DNA of 60,560 nucleotides from an uncultured delta proteobacterium (GCA_903920005.1 CAIXKI010000169.1:1-60560); one strand, 5' to 3'. Shown: positions 1,412 through 11,670, counted from the stretch's first letter. Translations and numbers: made by a program. Notes: generated by a model not told the origin, from the letters alone.

Positions 1412-2434
1412 TTACGCCTTATCGCTAGGTCGGATCATGCCGTGAGCGAGGAGATCTTGGATGTCGATTAGTCCGACCGGGAGGTTTTGTTCGTCAACCA
1501 CAAGAAGTTGGTCGATTTTACGTTCTTGGATGATGCGGGCAGCTTCTTGAGCTAATTTGTCTGGGTGAATGGTAATGGGGGTTCGAGAGCAGAGTTCCCC
1601 GATCGGTCTCTTAAGAAACTCAGTATCCTGTTCAAGGCATCGCCGGAGGTTACCGTCGGTAAAGACCCCGACGAGAATACCCTTGTCGTTAACGATACCA
1701 GCCGCGCCTGGGCGACCCTTTGTTTCTGTGATCTGGCGTAGAGCCTTCTTCGTTTCTACCGACTCGTGCACGACGCAGCAGCTATCGCCGGCCCGCATAA
1801 TGTCAGCCACGAGCATGAGTGAGCGTCCTAGATCGCCTCCAGGATGAAATGCCGCGAATTCTTCACGGGAGAAGCCGCGACGTTTCACGAGCGTCATGGC
1901 GAGAGCGTCACCGAGAGCCATCATGACCGTCGTGCTGGTCGTAGGCGCAAGCCCAAGAGGACCTGCCTCAGGGAAGCGACCCGTTTCAATCACTATATCG
2001 CTATGTTTTGCGAGCGTTGAGCTTGAAATGCTTGTAATTGAGATAATGTGACTGCCGTGTTCTTTCAGGGTCGGAAGGAGTCGGACAACTTCAGACGTCT
2101 CTCCGGAGTTGGAGAGGAGGAGCGCTACGTCGTCTTTCGTAAATCGACCGAGATCTCCGTGAACGGCATCCGCGGGATGAAGAAAGAAGCTTGGGAAGCC
2201 GATGCTGGAAAGGGTTGCCGATATTTTTTGCGCTACGAACCCCGCTTTGCCCATGCCCGAGACTACTATGCGCGATCCGGGAGTGAGTGAGAGAATAGCG
2301 GTAACGGCCTGAGAGAATGACTCATCCAGAAGGTCTGCGACTGAGGAGAGCGCGGCGATCTCCTCACGAATGACGGATTGCCCATATTCGATATCGCCTG
2401 CCACGAGAGATCTATGTGAAGCTGCATCGCCCAT
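1412..2434 (-). CDS. kpsF: Arabinose-5-phosphate isomerase (SIS domain + tandem CBS domains), KpsF/GutQ family
   Basis: 340 aa. SIS motifs VVSGMGKAGFVAQKISATLSSIG and LLLSNSGETSEV, with a C-terminal CBS pair (GAAGIVNDKGILVGVFTDGNLRR, LLVVDEQNLPVGLIDIQDLL). Confidence 0.9.
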   Translation of the reverse strand: MGDAASHRSLVAGDIEYGQSVIREEIAALSSVADLLDESFSQAVTAILSLTPGSRIVVSGMGKAGFVAQKISATLSSIGFPSFFLHPADAVHGDLGRFTKDDVALLLSNSGETSEVVRLLPTLKEHGSHIISITSISSSTLAKHSDIVIETGRFPEAGPLGLAPTTSTTVMMALGDALAMTLVKRRGFSREEFAAFHPGGDLGRSLMLVADIMRAGDSCCVVHESVETKKALRQITETKGRPGAAGIVNDKGILVGVFTDGNLRRCLEQDTEFLKRPIGELCSRTPITIHPDKLAQEAARIIQERKIDQLLVVDEQNLPVGLIDIQDLLAHGMIRPSDKA

Positions 2435-2496
2435 AAGGGGTCAGTATATCGTGAGTGACGAGCTTAATCCAACAGTTCAAAAACACACGTTATTTT

Positions 2497-2670
2497 AGCC
2501 GTATGTGCATGTCTGGGCTCTGGATTTACTGGGAAACGTGCGACTCCCTCTGGGATAACATAACTTCTTGGCCGCGTCCGGGTTCCTTATCTGAGGATTG
2601 AGCATAGAATCTCGTCTTGATACGCCAGGAAAGTGCCGCAAAAACGCGACGGCGGAGTTTTGCCTCTTAT
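2497..2670 (+). repeat. Repeat module A, copy 1 (174 bp)
   Basis: Aligns base for base with 13556-13729 in direct orientation, with 5 mismatches by eye. Lies in a gene-free gap. Confidence 0.95.
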
Positions 2671-2840
2671 AAGGAACACCTACTTGTGAGTAAAGCGCTA
2701 CCCGTATTTAGGCCCCACACTACTTCTGCGCCTCTAGCGACTTATCACTTTTGTATGAGGTCTATAGTTCCAGTTCTCAGGCTTAAGTTTGAGGCGTTCC
2801 GCTTCAAGTCTTCTGGCCTTCATTTCTCAAGTCCCCGTTA
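2671..2840 (+). repeat. Repeat module B, copy 1 (170 bp)
   Basis: Its reverse complement recurs at 15280-15448 with a few mismatches. The first 33 nt also recur at 43333-43365. Confidence 0.95.
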
Positions 2841-2854
2841 GTATACTTCTCTTT

Positions 2855-2903
2855 CTTGAAATTTAGCGATGGCCCCGGGGCTTGTTGTCTCTCGTTCGAG
2901 CGA
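2855..2903 (+). repeat. Repeat module C, copy 1 (49 bp)
   Basis: cttgaaatttagcgatggccccggggcttgttgtctctcgttcgagcga matches the reverse complement of 15132-15180 with about 5 mismatches. Confidence 0.85.
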
Positions 2904-3342
2904 GTACTCGACGCTATTATTTCACGGTCCTCAAAGTCGATCGCAACACAGCAATAAACTAGTCGGCCCTATTGGCTATACTGGTGGAACTTGTGAGTAT
3001 TTTGCCGTGTTAAAAATGAGCTGTAAGCTCATTGGGGCTGGTGTATCTCCGACACAAGTAGATTTCTTTACTATTACGACGACCTCAAGGATGAGACCAT
3101 CTTTGGTGGCGCGAAGATATTGGGGAGGAGAGCCCGTCACGATGGGTGAGCGTACACCATAAGGAACGCTCGCCGCTATCGGCAGACCCCTCTCACTGGG
3201 ACATCGCACTTCCGATACGTTCACCTACCTGTTGTAGCCAAACCGATCATGGCCTCTACTAAGACGCTGTTGAGATGCGAGTAATGCTCCCTACACCGTA
3301 CAGCGTGCCAGCCAAATGGGACACATTAAGAATCCGAGACTA

Positions 3343-3591
3343 TCAGCGGTTGAATAAGATTTTACTGAGCGCTCGTATAGGGTACGTGAGCGCAAACAGC
3401 ATACCCCGGTAAAAAAGATGTCGTCGCCGTTGCCGGATAGCTTCCTTCTCCTTGACCTTTCTCACGTAAATCGGCTTTGAACGACGCAAGCCCAACAAAA
3501 CCGATTCGGCGATTCGATCTTCAGAGTCAACAACTGGGACCTCTCCTATTAAAGCTCCCGCGATCACGTTTTCAGCGTCTCTAGCGCGCAT
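3343..3591 (-). CDS. Hypothetical 82-aa protein, last ORF of the MNIO operon (tentative)
   Basis: ATG at 3591 overlaps the DUF692 stop (3581-3583) by 11 nt. Basic, no recognisable domain. Its position is the only support. Confidence 0.35.
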   Translation of the reverse strand: MRARDAENVIAGALIGEVPVVDSEDRIAESVLLGLRRSKPIYVRKVKEKEAIRQRRRHLFYRGMLFALTYPIRALSKILFNR

Positions 3592-4462
3592 TCTGCACCG
3601 CTGTCCGCCGTTTACGCCCTCGGGAGAGCGCCCCTCGCGCTTTATCCAATTCCGCCTTTATTTCCTCGAATGCCGGATAGTTCCCATCACGCTCAAGTAT
3701 GACGGTAAGTGTTTGTGGCACGACCGAGGCCAACTCCTCTAGTAATGTATAAACTTCCTCAGCTACGGGGTGAAGATGATCATCAAGGAAATATTCGCCC
3801 GCTTCATCTGTCGTGGCGTGCCCCCCCGCGATATGCACGTATTTGACATCGGACAGGGGAAATTTGAGCATTTCCGCAAGCCAGTCAGTTTGGAAGTTTC
3901 TGCTGTTCGCGTAAATATTTTCAAGATCAAGAAGCAATTTAACACCGGCGCCCTTGATTATCTCAGTGGTCCACGCTGCCTCACTCATCGTACTACCGAT
4001 GGGGTGATACAAGGTCGCGATGTTTTCGAGGTGAGGGACTGAGCCGATGGCTTTCGCGGCTACATGAACGTTACGTATAGTGCTCTCAACTGTCTCCTCT
4101 GACCACGGTGGCGCCGCTAAATGTCCAAGCTCATGGTCCGTAGTCCTTACAAACGCGAAGTGTTCTGACCAAGCCTCTGGTCCTATAGCGCCAACGACTC
4201 GGGCGACAGCCTCAACGTGCTTTGAACTCACCGCGTAGGTGCTCGCTAATCCCAAACTAACAGCGTGAACGACGATATCAACTTCAGAGGAGAGACGATT
4301 GAAAACTTTTAGTTCCGACTTGCTAAGGTGCGTACAATTTTCAGCGACGACCTCTATGATATCTATCTCTTCAAGTTGTTCAAGGATTCCCACTCCGATC
4401 TCTGGGCGCCAGCCTACTCCAACGCGATCTTCAACCGATTTGTAGCCCTGAAAATCGCTCAT
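3581..4462 (-). CDS. DUF692 / MbnB-like multinuclear non-heme iron oxidative enzyme (MNIO)
   Basis: Family blocks are all present: GVGWRPEIG, IDIIEVVAEN, HAVSLGLAS, WSEHFAF, LENIATLY, LLLDLENIYANS, YVHIAGGH, LDDHLHPV, TVILERDGNYP. The ATG at 4462 overlaps the stop of the upstream gene (TGATG). The track start at 4465 is a TTG one codon earlier. Confidence 0.9.
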   Translation of the reverse strand: MSDFQGYKSVEDRVGVGWRPEIGVGILEQLEEIDIIEVVAENCTHLSKSELKVFNRLSSEVDIVVHAVSLGLASTYAVSSKHVEAVARVVGAIGPEAWSEHFAFVRTTDHELGHLAAPPWSEETVESTIRNVHVAAKAIGSVPHLENIATLYHPIGSTMSEAAWTTEIIKGAGVKLLLDLENIYANSRNFQTDWLAEMLKFPLSDVKYVHIAGGHATTDEAGEYFLDDHLHPVAEEVYTLLEELASVVPQTLTVILERDGNYPAFEEIKAELDKARGALSRGRKRRTAVQNAR

Positions 4463-5316
4463 CAACTACCACAGCCCCCGCACCCGCCACCACAGCCACC
4501 GCCGCCGCAACTACTACCACACGAAGTTCCGCAGCTCGATCCGCTTCCACCCTCAGATTTAAACGCTGACATGAACATATACTCACTCGAAGAGAGAACA
4601 CTTACTCCAAACACAGCTATTAGGAATGAAAAATGACGGTTCTGCGATGGATTCACCAACTCTTTTGTCTGGCTTTTCAACCTACCGAATAGGGTCTTTA
4701 GATCTTTAAGAGCGACGCTTCCCGCTGGTGTATACCAAAGAGGGAACTTCGCGTGAACGACAACTCCCACCACCGCCAGTATCATCAAAAATTCTATATT
4801 GTGCCTTCCGCGTTGAAGCGCAACCAGAATTTTTATCATCGCGAAAGCCAGCAAAGTGCCAATAATTATTATTTTAACTATGACCGACCTCTGTCGCTCA
4901 TCGCCCGACAGAATAAGATGATCATTGACCAGTGGCTGATGAAATAGCTTTTCCGCCACCTCTGCCGATCTTCCAGTCTCAAGTTTCCCAAGCGTCAATC
5001 CCGCAAAACAGTTCTCAAGGATCGCCCTTTCGAGCTGATGAGTGGTGGACGCCAACTGGCCCTTTTGGTACGTAATCGTATCTCCACTTACTTTGGCCGC
5101 CCTACGATGTACGAGCGTGGCCGCCGCCACCTTCACCGCTTCTTTTGGCCCTCCTCTTAGGTACGCGATTTGATACGGGTCAGTCAGCGGACGTCGAACA
5201 CTGCCGCTTTCTCCCAAAGTCCGCCAGAATAGCCAGAGGACCGCACCGCTCGCGACAATAAGCAGCGAGTAGAAAACTAAAAATTGCGGTCCATGCAGAT
5301 CAAATGGGTTAATCAT
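4462..5316 (-). CDS. TIGR04222-type membrane protein with C-terminal Cys/Gly-rich tail
   Basis: The N-terminus MINPFDLHGPQFLVFYSLLIV matches my recollection of the TIGR04222 signature. Several TM helices. The C-terminus is SEGGSGSSCGTSCGSSCGGGGCGGGCGGCGS. ATGA overlap with the upstream gene. Confidence 0.75.
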   Translation of the reverse strand: MINPFDLHGPQFLVFYSLLIVASGAVLWLFWRTLGESGSVRRPLTDPYQIAYLRGGPKEAVKVAAATLVHRRAAKVSGDTITYQKGQLASTTHQLERAILENCFAGLTLGKLETGRSAEVAEKLFHQPLVNDHLILSGDERQRSVIVKIIIIGTLLAFAMIKILVALQRGRHNIEFLMILAVVGVVVHAKFPLWYTPAGSVALKDLKTLFGRLKSQTKELVNPSQNRHFSFLIAVFGVSVLSSSEYMFMSAFKSEGGSGSSCGTSCGSSCGGGGCGGGCGGCGS

Positions 5317-6035
5317 ACAAGCGATTTAATCTGCTCCTTCATGAGAGAGGTAAGTTCGAGGACATCGGAGAGCGCCCGCTTAATCTCGTCAAGGGCGAAG
5401 GTCTTGCCTTCTCTCGCCTCTGACACAACACAGAGACTCATCTTAAATCCATCAGCTCTAATCCCCGCCGCTACCAATTCTAGAGCCTGTTTTGGGCTTT
5501 CAAAAGCCACCCCCCTCATCTCAAGGAACGCGCTCGCTGATGCCCGCAAAGGTGAAACGCTATCCGCTAGAATTTGAGTTAGTTGCTCCGCGCTTTCATT
5601 CCTCAACGCGAAGGCGTAGCGCAGGCGCAAAAGAAGGTTCAGAAGAACCTGCCTCAATCGAGCCACAAGCGCCTCTTTAGAGATCGCCATCGCGGCGAAT
5701 GGATCAGAGCCATACAAAACGCGACGCCGACGAGAGATATCCGAGAACTTGACCGCGAATAATTGCGACGCTGTGGCCAGTTCGCTCTCAAGTAGAAACA
5801 TCACCTGCAGGTCTATCGCCGCCGCGGCAAAGGTAAGAATTGAAGACAACGCGGCCGCGTCGTTTGGGGTGTACGAGCGCGCGACCAAGACAACATTCAC
5901 ATCAGACGTCTTCCGCAGCCGCCCCTCCGCCGCGCTTCCGTACAGAACCACCGAGACGAGCCGATCTCCGAAAACTATTTCAGCTTCACCGACAAACGCG
6001 TCTAGCGCTTTATTGACCCGCTCTGGTAGTTGCAT
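5313..6035 (-). CDS. Pol-beta-superfamily nucleotidyltransferase with helical C-terminal domain (KNTase-like layout)
   Basis: The motif VVLYGSAAEGRLRKTSDVNVVLV is hG[GS]-x(9-13)-D-h-X with Asn in place of the second acidic residue. 240 aa with a helical C-terminal half. First gene of the coupled operon. Confidence 0.7.
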   Translation of the reverse strand: MQLPERVNKALDAFVGEAEIVFGDRLVSVVLYGSAAEGRLRKTSDVNVVLVARSYTPNDAAALSSILTFAAAAIDLQVMFLLESELATASQLFAVKFSDISRRRRVLYGSDPFAAMAISKEALVARLRQVLLNLLLRLRYAFALRNESAEQLTQILADSVSPLRASASAFLEMRGVAFESPKQALELVAAGIRADGFKMSLCVVSEAREGKTFALDEIKRALSDVLELTSLMKEQIKSLV

Positions 6036-6363
6036 ACTAATTTTCTTCCCTTCCGATCACCTAAAATCCTCGGATCGGCCCAACTGTTTTTGTGCTCGCG
6101 CAGCGTTCAAAAAGCTCACCCACTATACAAGCTCTATCTCCACGCGAGCCCCGTTTGTTTCCGACGCCTATGTCCTTAAAAACAATTCGGTCTCCAGGCG
6201 AACGTGCTCTTGCAACGGAGCGCTGGTGACTTGCATCTTGCGGAATTCGAAACGATGCTAATAGGACTTACTCGTGTTCGCTAGTCAATTTATCCGCCTC
6301 AACGCGCGGGCTCTAATTGCTAAGCATGAGAATCGCTTCAAAGCACCGTGGAGAATCCAAAGG

Positions 6364-6498
6364 CCTTCTCTGGTCCTTCTCTGGTACAGGGCAACTCTCG
6401 ATCTCACTGACTCATCCGCACAACAAGCGAAAACCACACAGAAGAATGAGCCGGTTTGGAGTTGCCCTGTACCAGTGGAGCTGGACCAGTGGAGCTGG
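6364..6498 (+). repeat. Palindromic element, copy 1 (17-bp terminal inverted repeats + flanking tandem duplications)
   Basis: CTGGTACAGGGCAACTC (6381-6397) pairs with GAGTTGCCCTGTACCAG (6459-6475). Left flank ccttctctggt x2 (6364-6385). Right flank accagtggagctgg x2 (6471-6498). Confidence 0.95.
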
Positions 6499-6630
6499 CA
6501 TTCGCTGATAGAGAAATGTGTACGTTCTTAAAACATATGATGGCCAGGTTCAGCACGTTGATGAGTAGGTAGAAATCGGGATAACCACAGGAGACTCTTT
6601 TAGTTTCCGATTAGATTTTAAATCATGTAA

Positions 6631-6666
6631 TCATCGGATTTTACCGGGTCATCGGATTTTACCGGG
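6631..6666 (+). repeat. Perfect tandem duplication, 18 nt x2 (tcatcggattttaccggg)
   Basis: Read directly: 6631-6648 and 6649-6666 are identical. Confidence 0.95.
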
Positions 6667-6687
6667 CGGTCTCTGAGTGAAATAAGC

Positions 6688-6698
6688 GGGGGGGGGGG
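6688..6698. repeat. Homopolymeric G11 tract
   Basis: Eleven consecutive G, about 240 bp upstream of the Cys-rich secreted protein gene. Confidence 0.95.
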
Positions 6699-6703
6699 CT
6701 CGT

Positions 6704-6722
6704 ATTCCACTAAAAGTAGAAT
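6704..6722. promoter_or_regulatory. ATTCCAC-TAAAA-GTAGAAT box (imperfect palindrome), candidate operator
   Basis: tattccactaaaagtaga is identical over 18 nt to 43422-43439. It is related to the perfect palindrome at 42341-42361. Intergenic. Confidence 0.4.
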
Positions 6723-6936
6723 ATGTGCGTTTTGCGACATTTTTTTCCATGACAGGCGTCTTCAACATATATTTTTCTCTTAGTTTTGGGCGAACATTAT
6801 GTTTATATCCACCCGACGTAGTGACTGCTTAGAGTGTTTCAACGAGCCGTGGGCGTACGTCGAAGTGAAATCCACGGTGAGTGTATAAAATCTTCAGGCG
6901 CCTATTGGGTGCTTTGGGGAAATTAAATAGAGGAGT

Positions 6937-7356
6937 ATGAGTATGAGATTATTTTATGCAGCTCTCGGACTGGCGGTATCGCTGGTTGCCCTAGCAGGTT
7001 CAACTTCGATAGCGCAAGCAGCTTGCGGAGCGATTGCGGTTTATTCAAAAGGCGGCGCTGTAGAGATATCTGGCCCGACAACGATATGCCCCGAGGGTGC
7101 GGTTCCAGGAGATCCTGGATGCACTGAGGTGCAACAGGGTGCGTGTTGGCCGTGGTCAAAGAAAGTAATTCATACTTGTCCCGGTGGAAGCAAAGTTTAC
7201 GCGTTTGGAGATTGCGCACTATGTGTCTCCGAGAAAACGGGAACTCGAAATGCTGGTATCGCCTGCTGCGCTGCCATCACGACAGCTGGTAAAACTGAAC
7301 GACAGTTATGTGACAACAAGGTCAATAAAACAGCCGATGGTTTAGGCATGCCTTAG
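6937..7356 (+). CDS. Small secreted cysteine-rich protein (139 aa, 12 Cys)
   Basis: AGAGGAG ribosome-binding site before the ATG. Signal peptide MSMRLFYAALGLAVSLVALAGSTSIAQA. 12 Cys in the mature part. Confidence 0.8.
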   Translation: MSMRLFYAALGLAVSLVALAGSTSIAQAACGAIAVYSKGGAVEISGPTTICPEGAVPGDPGCTEVQQGACWPWSKKVIHTCPGGSKVYAFGDCALCVSEKTGTRNAGIACCAAITTAGKTERQLCDNKVNKTADGLGMP

Positions 7357-7476
7357 GCCTATAGGGCATCATGAAGTCAGCAAAACTTTCACGGCTCTTA
7401 CGGCAAAAAGAATGCTGGCTTAATCCCAAGGCGCTGGACTCCGATGAGTCCAGCGCTTACTCGCTGCGGAGGATGT

Positions 7477-9060
7477 ATGTACGCGGGCACCAAAACAAAC
7501 TTTTCCATGCAACTGGCAGGGCTTTCCCTCTTGAGTTTGGCAGGCTGCGCTCGACCTGGAGCGCAAGAAGCTGGGCTAGAGCGCAACAGTGGAACTCTCG
7601 GTCAAGACAGTTCGGCGCGCAGCTCCGTCAGGGTTTCAAATGATGGCAGCGTCTTCTCTCAAGAGTTGATAGCTGCCCCCAAGCCGCAGTTTGAAATACC
7701 CGAACTGAGTCGCGAGGTGCTTTCTGTTTTAGATCCGTCGGCGAGAGAGCCACTTATAGAGCTGCTTAGTAAAAGTCTCTCATCACCGGAAACGATGACG
7801 CCCCACGATTGGGTTGAGGAGATGTCAAATGCTCTCACCGCCGGCGGCATGTCCGAAGGAGAGATCCCGAAAGTGCTCGGCGGCTATGTCGCAAGGGGAT
7901 TATTTCCGCCCGCTCAGTATGTAGAAACTATTACGATCCTTAACAGACGATATCCCGAGGATGCGGCTGTCGCGGGCGCGTTCGCGAAGGTAGCTCTCGT
8001 GGGAACAGATCTACCATCTGCTTCCGTTTTATTCTCCTGGACAAGCTCTGCCGGAGGGAACCTTGGCCTCGATGCTCTCTCGGCGGAGAGATATCAGCGG
8101 TCCGATCCTAGCTGGGCCCCGGAAAACGCATGGGACTTGCCTATCAACGTCAACCTTGTTTTTGATGGATTGATGCCTCAATCTGAGGGTAATCCGCAAC
8201 CTCGCATCTCCCTAACCGGGACGATGGAGGGCTTGTCGGATTCAGGTAAGCTCCTTTGGTCTCGAGACCTAGAGCCGATCGCTTTCACAAATCCGGCATC
8301 CGATCATAATTACGTATCACTTCAGATCCAGGGAGAATCTGACCTTCCTGGCGGGCCGATTACTATTCGGATAACTTACGAAATAGCTCAACAATCCCCC
8401 GAGGGCTTTGAGGACTCCCGGACAAGTCGATTTCGAGGGGAGCACTGGACGAGGTTCGTGCCTGTGACTGAGAAATCAGCTCCTCCCAAAGAAGTTGGAT
8501 ATCGCGAGGTTCCGTTGGGTCTTCATGGACAGAGATTGGAGAATCCCTCAATCTTATCATCCGCGGTGTTTGACGTCGTTTCAGATATCTTAGTGACCAA
8601 CCGAAAAAACCTCTTGGAGAGGCTTAGAGCGGAGGAGCAGCGGGAGTTGCTTCGGCATGAATTAATCGGCAGCCCACTATCGGAAATATCGCTCAGTCAT
8701 GACTCGAAAGGCGCTGCATCAACCTTGGCGCTGCGACGCGAAGGCACCTCCATTTTAGTCTTCGGCGCAACCTGGTGTGGCCCCTGTGGCGCTATCGCTC
8801 CGGAGGTCGAGGCATTCATTCAGAGCAAGAGCACTCATCAAGGCCGCGCCGCTGTGTATCGTTTTTCCGTCGATGACCCAGAGGACTACGGAAAAGCAGT
8901 AAACGGTAAGTACCCAGATGGTGTGATCACACCGAGCCAAGGTGAGGCTCTCACCATCTCCTCCGTTCCCGCTTATGTAGTCACCAAGGATGGAAGAATC
9001 GTTGATTTGGGAGTTTTAGGACCTGGCGACATCGAGCGGCTTGCTGCGCAACATAAGTGA
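7477..9060 (+). CDS. Lipoprotein with C-terminal thioredoxin-fold domain (WCGPC)
   Basis: GGAGGA sits 3 nt before the ATG at 7477. Signal and lipobox MYAGTKTNFSMQLAGLSLLSLAGC. C-terminal ILVFGATWCGPCGAIAPEVEAF. The track start at 7444 is less likely. Confidence 0.8.
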   Translation: MYAGTKTNFSMQLAGLSLLSLAGCARPGAQEAGLERNSGTLGQDSSARSSVRVSNDGSVFSQELIAAPKPQFEIPELSREVLSVLDPSAREPLIELLSKSLSSPETMTPHDWVEEMSNALTAGGMSEGEIPKVLGGYVARGLFPPAQYVETITILNRRYPEDAAVAGAFAKVALVGTDLPSASVLFSWTSSAGGNLGLDALSAERYQRSDPSWAPENAWDLPINVNLVFDGLMPQSEGNPQPRISLTGTMEGLSDSGKLLWSRDLEPIAFTNPASDHNYVSLQIQGESDLPGGPITIRITYEIAQQSPEGFEDSRTSRFRGEHWTRFVPVTEKSAPPKEVGYREVPLGLHGQRLENPSILSSAVFDVVSDILVTNRKNLLERLRAEEQRELLRHELIGSPLSEISLSHDSKGAASTLALRREGTSILVFGATWCGPCGAIAPEVEAFIQSKSTHQGRAAVYRFSVDDPEDYGKAVNGKYPDGVITPSQGEALTISSVPAYVVTKDGRIVDLGVLGPGDIERLAAQHK

Positions 9061-9191
9061 TTGTTCCCCTTCTCTGGTACAGGGCAACTCTCGATCTCAC
9101 TGACTCACCCGCACAACAAGCGAAAACCACACAGAAAAATGAGCCGGTCCAGAGTTGCCCTGTACCATCGGAGCCGGACCATCGGAGCCGG
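9060..9191 (+). repeat. Palindromic element, copy 2
   Basis: GGTACAGGGCAACTCT (9076-9091) pairs with AGAGTTGCCCTGTACC (9151-9166). Followed by accatcggagccgg x2 (9164-9191). Starts on the stop codon of the thioredoxin lipoprotein gene. Confidence 0.95.
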
Positions 9192-9300
9192 CGCGCTTCT
9201 GCGGAACTACTGTCTCCCCTTTTTTTATCTCTGCCGAACGCTCTTTATCCACCCTCCAGGCATGCGCCCGATCCGCGTAGGATTTGCCGTGTGGCTCTAG

Positions 9301-9567
9301 CTATGCCCGCATTTTTCCGAATTCAGGGTTTTCTGCGGCGGTAAGGTCGTACGACCACTGTAAATTGGCCCATGTCTCAGGGTCTGTTCCGAGTGCGCGA
9401 GCAAGTTTCTTTGCCATCGATGCTGAGATGCCTCTTTTGCCCCTACAGATCATGTTAATAACCCCTGCCTCAACGCCGATATGTTTAGCAAGTTGAGATT
9501 GAGTGATACCTCTGTCAGATAGGATATCCTGCAAAATTTCGCCCGGATGAATCGTGTTTGGAAGCAT
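9301..9567 (-). CDS. higA: HigA-family antitoxin (XRE-type HTH)
   Basis: IHPGEILQDILSDRGITQSQLAKHIGVEAGVINMICRGKRGISASMAKKLARALGTDPETWANLQ is the typical HigA/VapI pattern. Lies 9 nt downstream of higB. Confidence 0.9.
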   Translation of the reverse strand: MLPNTIHPGEILQDILSDRGITQSQLAKHIGVEAGVINMICRGKRGISASMAKKLARALGTDPETWANLQWSYDLTAAENPEFGKMRA

Positions 9568-9576
9568 AGCTACTCC

Positions 9577-9873
9577 TTAGTGATAATCCACAATTTCAAC
9601 GTCTAACACCTGACCCTCAACAAACCGAAAGCAGATTCGATGCTGGTCGTTTATCCTAATACTCATTTGACCTTTACGGTCTCCTTTGAGTCTCTCAAGC
9701 TTGAGTCCCGGCCAAGCACGCAAGCTATCTAAGGTGCGGATACTGTCGAGAAAAACGAGTTTCTTGTAAGCCGAATAATGAAGCTCGCTTGGTAACAGCT
9801 TCAATGTTCGTTTGCTCTTCTTTCCATAAGCAATCTCCTCCATTTCTTTATTTTTGAAGGACTTAATCGCCAT
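9577..9873 (-). CDS. higB: HigB-family (RelE-fold) toxin
   Basis: MAIKSFKNK ... LKLERLKGDRKGQMSIRINDQHRICFRF ... VEIVDYH matches the HigB killer-protein pattern. Toxin-first gene order is typical of higBA. Confidence 0.9.
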   Translation of the reverse strand: MAIKSFKNKEMEEIAYGKKSKRTLKLLPSELHYSAYKKLVFLDSIRTLDSLRAWPGLKLERLKGDRKGQMSIRINDQHRICFRFVEGQVLDVEIVDYH

Positions 9874-10147: not shown

Positions 10148-10272
10148 ATTGTTCCCCTCTCTGGTACAGGGCAACTCTCGATCTCACTGACTCACCCGCA
10201 TAACAAGCGAAAACTACACAGAAAAATGAGCCGGTCCAGAGTTGCCCTGTACCAGTGGAGAACCAGTGGAGA
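10148..10272 (+). repeat. Palindromic element, copy 3
   Basis: CTGGTACAGGGCAACTCT (10161-10178) pairs with AGAGTTGCCCTGTACCAG (10238-10255). Followed by accagtggaga x2 (10251-10272). The left edge attgttcccct is shared with copy 2. Confidence 0.95.
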
Positions 10273-10318: not shown

Positions 10319-11443
10319 TTACGCTGCAGGTTCTGCTCGATCCTTGGGAAGAGGCTTTACGTCTTTACACGCGTAATACGGTGCCTCGTTGATAGGCGCG
10401 CAGATCTGACCCGCTTTGCAACTAGCACAACCTGAATACGTTGAGCATTTCCCCTTATAGCAACCCTCGGTAGGCCCGCAGCAGTTGTTGGCGTTATCTG
10501 CACTTGGACATGGATTGCCACAAGCAGGTGCTGCGGGAGGATCCTGGGGCGGAGGATTATCACCAGCCGGTGAATCGATGGCGCCAGGATTCGGAGCTGT
10601 TGGGGAATCCATCGGATCCGGATTTTGGGCAGGCGGCGAGTCAATTGGGCCAGGATTTAATGGCGGGAAGATGTCGTTTTTCGGACGACACTGTCCAGTC
10701 AACGGATCGCACACCATATCGGTGCCCACGCACGCGTCCTTGCACGCATCGGGTACCGGATCTGGTAGTGGGTCGGGCTTGGGGTCTGGTGCAGGACTAG
10801 ACACCTTTACGCAAGTGAAATCCTGTGGGCAGCCTTTTTCGTCTTTCTTGTTTACGCACTGCTCGCCAGCGGGACAGCTGGATGCTCCGCAGGAGCGAAA
10901 ACTGCATGCGAGACAGCCTGACTTAGATGAGGAGTCACAGGCATACATACAGCATGAAGTACCACCAGAACTATTTGCACATGGCACCTTGGCTTCTCCG
11001 GTGCAGAGGGCGCCGGGATTTGATGGTGGATTCCCTGGGTTGCTCGGTGGAGGTGAGGGAGGAGGCTTATCCCTATCGCAATCGTTGCAAAGATTTACAT
11101 TCTTCGGATAGGGGACTGTTTGAAAGACCGAAGCATCACACGAGGGGTTCAGCCATCGCCTGGTCGCGCGGTCTTTTCCTACGCAATCTATGGTAACGAG
11201 CTTATTGCATCCGTATTTAGCCGGGTTGCTGGCTTTTCTTGCCTCTATCTGCGCCTTAATGTCAACGCAGCCAGGACAGTTTTGAAGGGTGTATAACGTG
11301 ATTACGCAATCAGGCCTTGAAGGGTCCGAACCCACCGCACTAGCCGCGCCGCTGCTAATCACCGGTTGCTGCGCCCTAACACTGCCGCTCACCAATAAAA
11401 GACCTATGCATGCTGCAGCGCTGTACCTGGCTAGACTGTTCAT
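10319..11443 (-). CDS. Secreted Cys-rich / Pro-rich protein with N-terminal glutaredoxin-like CPGC segment
   Basis: GGGGGA ribosome-binding site and ATG at 11443. Signal peptide MNSLARYSAAACIGLLLVSGSVRAQQ. VITLYTLQNCPGCVDIKAQIE, over 40 Cys, and NPxPxDSP repeats. The track start at 11458 is a TTG. Confidence 0.8.
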   Translation of the reverse strand: MNSLARYSAAACIGLLLVSGSVRAQQPVISSGAASAVGSDPSRPDCVITLYTLQNCPGCVDIKAQIEARKASNPAKYGCNKLVTIDCVGKDRATRRWLNPSCDASVFQTVPYPKNVNLCNDCDRDKPPPSPPPSNPGNPPSNPGALCTGEAKVPCANSSGGTSCCMYACDSSSKSGCLACSFRSCGASSCPAGEQCVNKKDEKGCPQDFTCVKVSSPAPDPKPDPLPDPVPDACKDACVGTDMVCDPLTGQCRPKNDIFPPLNPGPIDSPPAQNPDPMDSPTAPNPGAIDSPAGDNPPPQDPPAAPACGNPCPSADNANNCCGPTEGCYKGKCSTYSGCASCKAGQICAPINEAPYYACKDVKPLPKDRAEPAA

Positions 11444-11670
11444 TAAATCCCCCACCAAGATATAAATTCCTGGAAGTAACTTCGGCGCTTATACGTAAAT
11501 CCCTGAGCATTTTTGCCTAATTAGATCGGAGGGCATAACACAATAAAATCGGCATACCTATCAGGGGTATAGCTAATAGTATGAAGCAATGTTCTAGAGA
11601 TCTCAGACTAGTGGAGAGAAGGTGGTAACGGATCAGCAGCCTTCGCCTAAACGTTATCGAAAGAGGTTTT

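Follow-up and report, generated by a model that had tools for sequence, protein, structure and literature searches.

Enzymes of the MNIO family (multinuclear iron oxidases, DUF692) are among the largest families of peptide-modifying enzymes, and two of its members, BufB and HvfB, perform heterocycle chemistry on their own substrates. Bufferin (BufA/BufB/BufC) and HvfA/oxazolin precursors are made as small, soluble proteins that carry a Sec signal peptide, their Cys-derived heterocycles are bound for the periplasm, and the MNIO is accompanied by a DUF2063-RRE partner (PME-type 1). In a bioinformatic survey with TIGR04222-MNIO clusters among its subjects, Leprevost, Jacob-Dubuisson and co-workers (Microb Genom 2025; PMC12452194) reported that genes for TIGR04222 membrane proteins frequently turn up beside MNIO genes, and put forward the C-terminal Ser/Gly/Cys segment of these proteins as a possible MNIO substrate. 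The TIGR04222-MNIO clusters are without DUF2063; at least 10% of them have short DUF2063-like 'PME-type 2' partners and many are partnerless, and how MNIOs that have no DUF2063, MbnC or TglI partner find their substrates is an explicit question in the survey (PMC12452194). Here we analyse a four-gene cassette at positions 3343-6035 of a 60,560-nt stretch of DNA (the window) from an uncultured delta proteobacterium (GCA_903920005.1 CAIXKI010000169.1:1-60560), which encodes a nucleotidyltransferase (NTase), a TIGR04222 membrane protein with a Cys-rich tail, an MNIO and a small basic protein of 82 amino acids (aa). The pairing of TIGR04222 protein and MNIO, together with the idea of the tail as substrate, has already been published as a bioinformatic hypothesis (PMC12452194). 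What is new, as judged from sequences and structure models, is a cassette of four genes that recurs across many phyla, always with an NTase predicted to have the fold of aminoglycoside nucleotidyltransferases (ANT) and a D-x-N motif, and an MNIO companion that appears to be a detached NHLP-type leader-like domain, in whose place the clade of the window seems to carry a derived 80-aa protein. PMC12452194 mentions neither a nucleotidyltransferase, for which its supplements likewise contain no term, nor an NHLP-like small protein, and we found no publication tying such an NTase to an MNIO cluster.

Like the TIGR04222-MNIO clusters of the survey, the cassette has a Ser/Gly/Cys tail and an adjacent bufferin-type-like MNIO and is devoid of DUF2063; the features by which the survey delimits its TIGR04222 substrate subset, i.e. 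a C-proximal Cys-rich Ser/Gly segment, an adjacent MNIO and no DUF2063, are all present here. The survey set is dominated by Actinomycetota (PMC12452194); the cassette adds the NTase and, in most relatives, the NHLP-like small protein. The very small 'adjamnio-V' proteins of the survey could be equivalent to the cassette small proteins.

The four genes lie on the minus strand and are joined by overlapping stop and start codons, as an earlier note on this DNA had described, and direct reading of the strand reproduced all of its coordinates and junctions. The NTase gene (5313..6035, 240 aa) overlaps the TIGR04222 membrane protein gene (4462..5316, 284 aa) in an ATGA at 5316-5313. The latter, whose codons for the C-terminal Gly/Ser/Cys tail (residues 254-284, the presumed modification site) occupy 4465..4557, meets the MNIO gene (3581..4462, 293 aa from an ATG or 294 aa from a TTG at 4465) in a TGATG at 4464-4460, and the MNIO stop is overlapped by the start of the gene for the small basic protein (3343..3591, 82 aa), the shared 11 nt lying at 3591-3581. 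The gene identities proposed in the earlier note also stood. The 293-aa product falls into DUF692 with 210.7 bits against PF05114 (MbnB_TglH_ChrH; cut-off 25, profile positions 2-261 of 263), the 284-aa product falls into TIGR04222 with 97.6 bits (cut-off 43, profile positions 2-228 of 229), and the NTase is identified through its structure model. Within the 60-kb window there is no second copy of any cassette gene and no further Gly/Ser/Cys tail.

The same arrangement recurs far outside the window. More than 3500 homologues of the NTase were found, and the neighbourhoods of six of them showed the same order of NTase, ~290-aa membrane protein, MNIO and ~80-aa open reading frame (ORF); when the locus was approached in reverse, from homologues of the membrane protein, an NTase again lay upstream. 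A scan at one genome per species yielded 195 relatives, the best 80 of which are metagenome-assembled genomes without exception and come from the Acidobacteriota, Beta-, Gamma- and 'delta'-proteobacteria, Bdellovibrionota, Chloroflexota, Verrucomicrobiota, Nitrospirota, Omnitrophota and Elusimicrobiota. We further searched all reading frames of 84 non-redundant related loci, every one from a metagenome-assembled genome, with profiles derived from the cassette, and the order of NTase, TIGR04222 and DUF692 genes, the conservation of which the earlier note's reading had presupposed, was found to hold across this set. A TIGR04222-type gene follows the NTase in all 82 loci with room for it; an MNIO gene adjoins the TIGR04222 gene in 68 of 74 loci (92%), lies 3.3 kb off in one and is absent in five although at least 900 nt of room is available. 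After the MNIO comes a small protein, of a canonical type in 59 loci and of the type seen in the window in 4 loci, which is missing only at contig ends and in one further locus (L059) where the MNIO has a divergent C-terminal extension. The junctions are mainly 4-nt overlaps. The NTase and the small ORF, which the earlier note had regarded as stand-ins for the missing MNIO partner, are instead constant members of a four-gene cassette. The tail in L045 is seemingly frame-shifted. On two long contigs, frameshifts break the NTase across three frames (L089, 4164-5098) or the MNIO across two (L090, 5590-6734), as might result from assembly errors or from decay into pseudogenes.

The pairwise distances of NTase, membrane protein and MNIO are correlated with r of 0.77-0.83, and none of 999 permutations in a Mantel test gave a value as high. 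The ratio of nonsynonymous to synonymous substitution rates (dN/dS) of the 82-aa ORF of the window against its orthologues is 0.17-0.18, a sign of purifying selection; taken with the gene order in the 84 loci, the arrangement is therefore far beyond chance. When the window is compared with its closest relatives (NTase identity 85-87%), the similarity breaks off at the edges of the cassette, and even close relatives carry it in differing genomic contexts. A Pfam scan of 138 flanking genes found no family more than 6 times and no recurrent transporter, protease, regulator or metal-homeostasis gene. Because the flanks hold no recurrent family and the similarity stops at the edges, the four genes constitute the whole conserved system. 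The cassette is a self-contained, translationally coupled four-gene unit that has been co-inherited across many bacterial phyla.

Among the family models, BufB and HvfB come closest to the MNIO, yet the equivalog cut-off is reached for neither (173.4 bits against 310 for NF050167, BufB; 146.6 bits against 360 for NF003818, HvfB); on these profile scores it is related to BufB/HvfB but belongs to a separate subfamily. It matches the structures 3bww (E 4.5e-18) and TglH (E 2e-7) in the PDB, and at the motif level the His/Glu/Asp blocks that supply metal ligands in the TIM barrel are kept with respect to 3bww (HxxSL, SxHxxF, EN, LDxxNIYxN, HIAG, DxH and LERD). In agreement with the earlier note, which had seen no DUF2063, MbnC or TglI partner, none of the four products matched a partner of these types at E ≤ 0.1 in scans of the Pfam and NCBIfam libraries; neither was there a match to the DUF2282 or Buf precursor families in these libraries. 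The locus was rejected as a bufferin-type system for ribosomally made peptides with post-translational modifications (RiPPs), in view of the lack of any DUF2282/Buf/DUF2063 match and of a candidate substrate that is a 284-aa polytopic membrane protein. Unlike the bufferin systems, the cassette lacks DUF2063, has an NTase and another kind of small protein, and has its presumed substrate at the C-terminus of a polytopic membrane protein.

The C-terminus of the 284-aa product reads SEGGSGSSCGTSCGSSCGGGGCGGGCGGCGS, with seven Cys within the last 25 residues and a Gly after each of them. Among 75 homologues, the last 45 residues contain on average 5.9 Cys, against fewer than 2 on average in the rest of the protein; the residue that follows a tail Cys is Gly in 88% and Ser in 11% of the cases, and the last 30 residues are made up of 45% Gly, 30% Ser and 19% Cys, charged residues being nearly absent. 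The pattern CGG(x0-2)CG stands at the tail end in 74 of the 75 homologues, and no other part of the membrane protein is as well conserved across phyla as the motif ...SCGSSCGGGGCGGGCGGCG[SG]. An independent alignment likewise found G276, G278, C279, G281, C282 and G283 to be invariant, which are columns of the terminal G-x-G-C-G-G-C-G. Cys-Gly is also the context in the Buf_EGKCG/oxazolin precursors, which are listed as MNIO substrates (PMC12452194), and the cassette would resemble the bufferin and oxazolin systems both in this Cys-Gly context (EGKCG repeats) and in the proposed Cys-derived heterocycles bound for the periplasm. The proposal of the earlier note that the Cys-rich tail is the substrate of the MNIO fits the conservation of the tail and the adjacency of the MNIO in 68 of 74 loci, but the idea is not new, being already contained in PMC12452194.

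An AlphaFold2 (AF2) model of the membrane protein (pLDDT 86) has transmembrane helices (TM) at about residues 9-33 (TM1), 138-168 (TM2) and 175-190 (TM3), a soluble domain at 47-131 built of two helix-helix-hairpin units, a basic loop at 191-222, several short helices across 197-236, the last of which (223-236) is hydrophobic, and a disordered tail. A Foldseek search with this model gave no PDB match at E ≤ 0.001. Some close TIGR04222 relatives, P0152, P0168 and P0220 among them, have a weak match to PF20990 (DUF2207_C), a hint that the TIGR04222 membrane core is related to members of the DUF2207 family. The mean numbers of Lys and Arg (K+R) over the 75 homologues are 0.2 at the N-terminus and 7.0 in the loop 191-226 (net charge +4.1), a distribution that predicts an external N-terminus, cytoplasmic loops 1 and 3 and an external tail, the last on condition that the fourth helix is a full span. 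On these counts, which bear on the earlier note's question as to the side that the tail faces, a periplasmic tail is favoured provided that the fourth helix crosses the membrane, in agreement with the survey, where the tail of TIGR04222 proteins is also predicted to be periplasmic (PMC12452194). The opposite topology, with the N-terminus inside, four full spans and a cytoplasmic tail, is disfavoured, as it would leave about 4 K+R inside and 11 outside.

A tail exposed on the periplasmic side would permit its release outside the cell, and a cleavage site could be provided by a short stretch just before it that is conserved and contains a basic residue (L[YF]P[KR]A in most relatives, AFK[SP] in the clade of the window). 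The TIGR04222 protein might on these grounds be a giant membrane precursor, from which an unlinked protease frees the ~30-residue modified tail as a metallophore-like RiPP. However, no protease or exporter is encoded in the cassette or enriched alongside it, and the membrane part, with 22 invariant columns that include TM and loop residues, is conserved beyond what a leader would need; we regard this explanation as improbable.

The first gene of the cassette encodes a protein that stays below threshold by sequence (PF18765, 18.9 bits; PF01909, 17.6 bits), and the best ANT model, ANT(9), gives it 24.5 bits against a cut-off of 340. An AF2 model built on 45 homologues (pLDDT 92) found 37 PDB matches at E ≤ 1e-3 in Foldseek, all of them NTases; the top matches were AadA/ANT(3'')(9) (TM-score 0.64), ANT(9) and KNTase (0.56-0.67 across these enzymes), followed by HalB and MntA. 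The model clearly points to an NTase of the Pol-beta superfamily with the two-domain ANT fold. With ANT(3'')(9)/AadA, ANT(9) and ANT(4')/KNTase the protein has in common the combination of a Pol-beta NTase domain and a helical domain (TM-score 0.56-0.67), and the G-S...S-D motif of AadA can be aligned with it, while the identity amounts to 14-17% with AadA and ANT-3,9 and to 9-10% with ANT(9) and ANT(4'). Membership of the ANT family was rejected, as the protein scores below every ANT cut-off and S-D-V-N replaces the G-S...D-x-D/E metal motif; nor is it by context a resistance gene, because it is always encoded with a membrane protein. Thirteen residues (G33, S34, E37, R41, S44, D45, N47, E85, K96, R137, R139, R164 and R208) are invariant in the 45 diverse NTases, and since this active-site-like signature is invariant, the site is likely to be a working rather than a decayed nucleotide site. 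The motif SDVN aligns to SDID of AadA, with N47 opposite the second metal-binding Asp, and this Asp-to-Asn change leaves room for a non-catalytic binding role. From the conserved residues, Glu85 among them, we favour the view that a nucleotidyl group is really transferred and that a hydroxyl of the membrane protein receives it.

The match of the NTase model to HalB (Foldseek E 2.8e-5, TM-score ~0.5) and MntA brings to mind another explanation, in which the NTase and the membrane protein form a signalling or anti-phage pair of the Hailong HalB/HalA type, the NTase product controls the membrane protein as effector, and the MNIO and small protein are accessory. The NTase-membrane protein pair is the invariant core of the loci (82 of 82), the context of the cassette varies even among close relatives, and toxin-antitoxin genes lie near it in the window and in one relative, all of which would suit such a system. 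The best structural matches, on the other hand, are two-domain ANT enzymes and not HalB, the flanks show no enrichment of defence genes, PADLOC gave weak matches for the N-terminus of the NTase and nothing for the other three products, and the conserved Cys tail and the MNIO would be left unexplained, so that we consider a Hailong-like function very unlikely. The cassette was also rejected as a catalogued defence system, the weak N-terminal matches of the NTase in PADLOC being to the candidate PDC-S09 models.

The small protein that follows the MNIO is best understood from its canonical form, present in 59 loci, which has the consensus MS..FE.FLARLYTD..AR..FL.DP..EA..AGLS..E..AL..IDR.GL.MAA.SF..KR followed by a basic tail. 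When 31 canonical members were compared with models of the NHLP clan, 30 matched NF038399, just under the cut-off (best E 1.6e-11), and 15 matched TIGR04509; in the PDB, the canonical profile matched nitrile hydratase alpha (in its N-terminal region), LigA domains and SonA, a borosin precursor. The canonical proteins hence resemble the NHLP-clan/LigA-like RiPP leaders, i.e. nitrile hydratase leaders, the NF038399 Os1348 family and SonA. Leader domains of the NHLP/LigA-like kind dock RiPP precursors onto their modifying enzymes. Unlike in those precursors, the domain in the cassette has no attached core; its gene comes behind that of the enzyme, or the two are fused, and a separate, membrane-bound polypeptide bears the putative core. 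In L003 and L089 the MNIO carries the canonical domain as a C-terminal fusion; in L079 the MNIO is C-terminally extended and the canonical-profile match runs partly beyond the MNIO stop, and the extension of the MNIO in L059 was not matched by the profile. Because of the fusions, which serve as Rosetta stones, the canonical protein can be taken to work with the MNIO, and the small protein is likely, on this comparison, to be its partner.

The window has a different small protein. Its consensus is MRARDAE..LIA..L...IS.S.LLGL.RS.PIYARK..EK with an amphipathic basic C-terminus; two homologues were found in the initial search, and the family comprises only 12 representative clusters in 1.84 billion proteins. 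The 82-aa product had no Pfam or NCBIfam match, and neither a search with the canonical profile nor a first hhalign comparison (4 sequences) gave a signal for the small ORF of the window. An intermediate protein in L091 matches both profiles via a helix of the form ID.VGL..S.P.Y.KKR, and a larger hhalign comparison of the two types gave P 4e-4 with a probability of 35% over 36 columns. The 82-aa protein is the positional, and probably also the functional, equivalent of the canonical one. It belongs to a small lineage-specific family whose link to the NHLP-type domain is no more than suggestive; possibly it is a truncated derivative of the canonical domain, of which it appears to keep at most the C-terminal helix. 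A 388-aa relative, P0243, has the window-type small protein as residues 1-78 and then a larger part with a hydrophobic segment; it may be a natural fusion or else owe its length to a gene call that reads through.

We consider it on the whole somewhat probable that the cassette makes and matures a membrane-anchored Cys-derived peptide through the four coupled genes. The MNIO would take as its partner the small protein, which could keep the enzyme at the membrane by means of its basic amphipathic C-terminus, and the cytoplasmic helix-hairpin domain between TM1 and TM2 of the membrane protein is a candidate docking site for cytoplasmic enzymes. By analogy with BufB and HvfB, the MNIO would form 5-thiooxazole (or oxazolone/thioamide) heterocycles by oxidising the tail's Cys-Gly units. 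The MNIO, the NTase and the small protein have no signal peptides or export signals, and since the tail is predicted outside while the enzymes are not exported, it would have to be modified before translocation; being made last, nearly uncharged and behind a weak fourth helix, the tail would probably receive its modification in the cytoplasm and reach the periplasmic face afterwards, an order that fits with its location at the extreme C-terminus and its lack of charge. There it would serve as a tethered group that binds metal or is redox-active. The NTase would most likely add a nucleotide to a hydroxyl of the membrane protein or of the Ser-rich tail, or else serve as a nucleotide-dependent chaperone, and its role is the least certain step.

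A bolder version of this model holds that an NHLP-type leader, supplied in trans or fused, activates the MNIO for heterocycle formation on the leaderless Cys-Gly tail of the membrane protein, and that the D-x-N NTase nucleotidylylates the same protein as a required step, its targets being e.g. Ser residues of the tail or an invariant loop Thr. We think this version unlikely; if true, it would represent a natural 'leader in trans' RiPP logic joined to protein nucleotidylylation, with the modified protein staying in the membrane.

Several points weigh against the membrane-anchored peptide model. The order of modification first and translocation second has to be assumed, and in the AF2 model no more than ~14 residues make up the fourth hydrophobic helix, which leaves the side of the tail uncertain. 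The NTase has an invariant Asn instead of the second metal-binding Asp of AadA, and a change of this kind at an Asp would as a rule be expected to harm the activity of such an enzyme. The 82-aa protein of the window is not demonstrably NHLP-like, given the lack of a profile match and the hhalign probability of 35%. Metal-homeostasis genes are not enriched among the 138 flanking genes, and the gene context, in which no family exceeds 6 occurrences, thus gives no support to a copper or metal role such as the methanobactin-like metal binding that the earlier note had thought plausible. Our literature search found no published biochemical data on any member of the cassette, and in this respect the earlier note's statement that the TIGR04222-DUF692 pairing has not been characterised biochemically still stands. 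Lastly, four loci (L005, L013, L075 and L086) keep a Cys-rich tail despite having no nearby MNIO, and hence the tail need not depend on an adjacent MNIO.

This last point bears on the idea that the tail stays unmodified, as a flexible metal or Fe-S ligand or as a linker, and that the substrate of the MNIO is the small protein or some other molecule. Those four loci and L067 (Omnitrophota), where the TIGR04222-like ORF reads on without a Cys tail, consist of an NTase-TIGR04222 pair with no MNIO within 2.3-5 kb; a third of TIGR04222 genomes are without an MNIO, and characterised MNIOs modify Asp, Asn and Phe as well (PMC12452194). The resemblance of the small protein to the leader domains of RiPP precursors also speaks for it. 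But the canonical small proteins show neither a conserved Cys nor a core-like extension, several ending right after the domain at 66-69 aa, and some are fused to the MNIO; moreover, in 92% of the loci the end that codes for the tail borders on the MNIO gene. An unmodified tail therefore seems quite improbable to us. No rival explanation accounts for all four conserved parts as well as the model of a membrane-anchored Cys-derived peptide does.

Upstream of the cassette, a tentative candidate promoter block (6215..6290, minus strand) is conserved in the two closest relatives. It contains TTGACT at 6288-6283 and TATTAG at 6263-6258 with a spacer of 19 nt; the block could be aligned among the window, L009 and L001, and the tblastx similarity between the window and L009 reaches position 6302. 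A generic promoter and terminator scan gave counts not above those in shuffled sequence and did not pick up this block, and an Rfam scan of 2400-9600 returned as its sole match a spurious miRNA hairpin, below threshold, on a repeat element. A repeat of ~125 nt occurs in three intergenic copies upstream of the cassette (6375-6499, 9068-9192 and 10155-10271; 90-91% identical) and holds a ~17-bp inverted repeat, CTGGTACAGGGCAACTC...GAGTTGCCCTGTACCAG; possibly it is an element like repetitive extragenic palindromes or miniature inverted-repeat transposable elements (REP/MITE), or a structured RNA. Also on this side are a type II toxin-antitoxin pair on the minus strand (9301-9567 and 9577-9873; a HigB-like toxin, PF05015, and a helix-turn-helix antitoxin) and, adjoining the cassette, two Cys-rich ORFs and a 538-aa protein (6937-7356, plus; 7444-9060, plus; 10319-11458, minus). 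The two Cys-rich ORFs have signal-peptide-like N-termini and no family match, and the 538-aa protein has a C-terminal thioredoxin domain (WCGPC); these genes are not kept beside the cassette in relatives. Downstream, on the minus strand, lie genes for a MacB/FtsX-type ABC permease and a KpsF-like SIS+CBS sugar-phosphate isomerase (210-1370 and 1412-2434), which are ordinary genes with no linkage to the cassette in other genomes.

The cassette offers a compact and very widely conserved test case for MNIOs that have no DUF2063, MbnC or TglI partner. It is unusual in that the apparent substrate is the end of an integral membrane protein, in that the likely partner is a leader-like domain detached from any core peptide, and in that an NTase fold of the antibiotic-resistance type, with an altered metal site, is found in every related locus examined. 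Its study could reveal a role of tethered Cys-derived groups at the envelope of many uncultured soil and water bacteria, and could give RiPP biology a new logic of enzyme recruitment.

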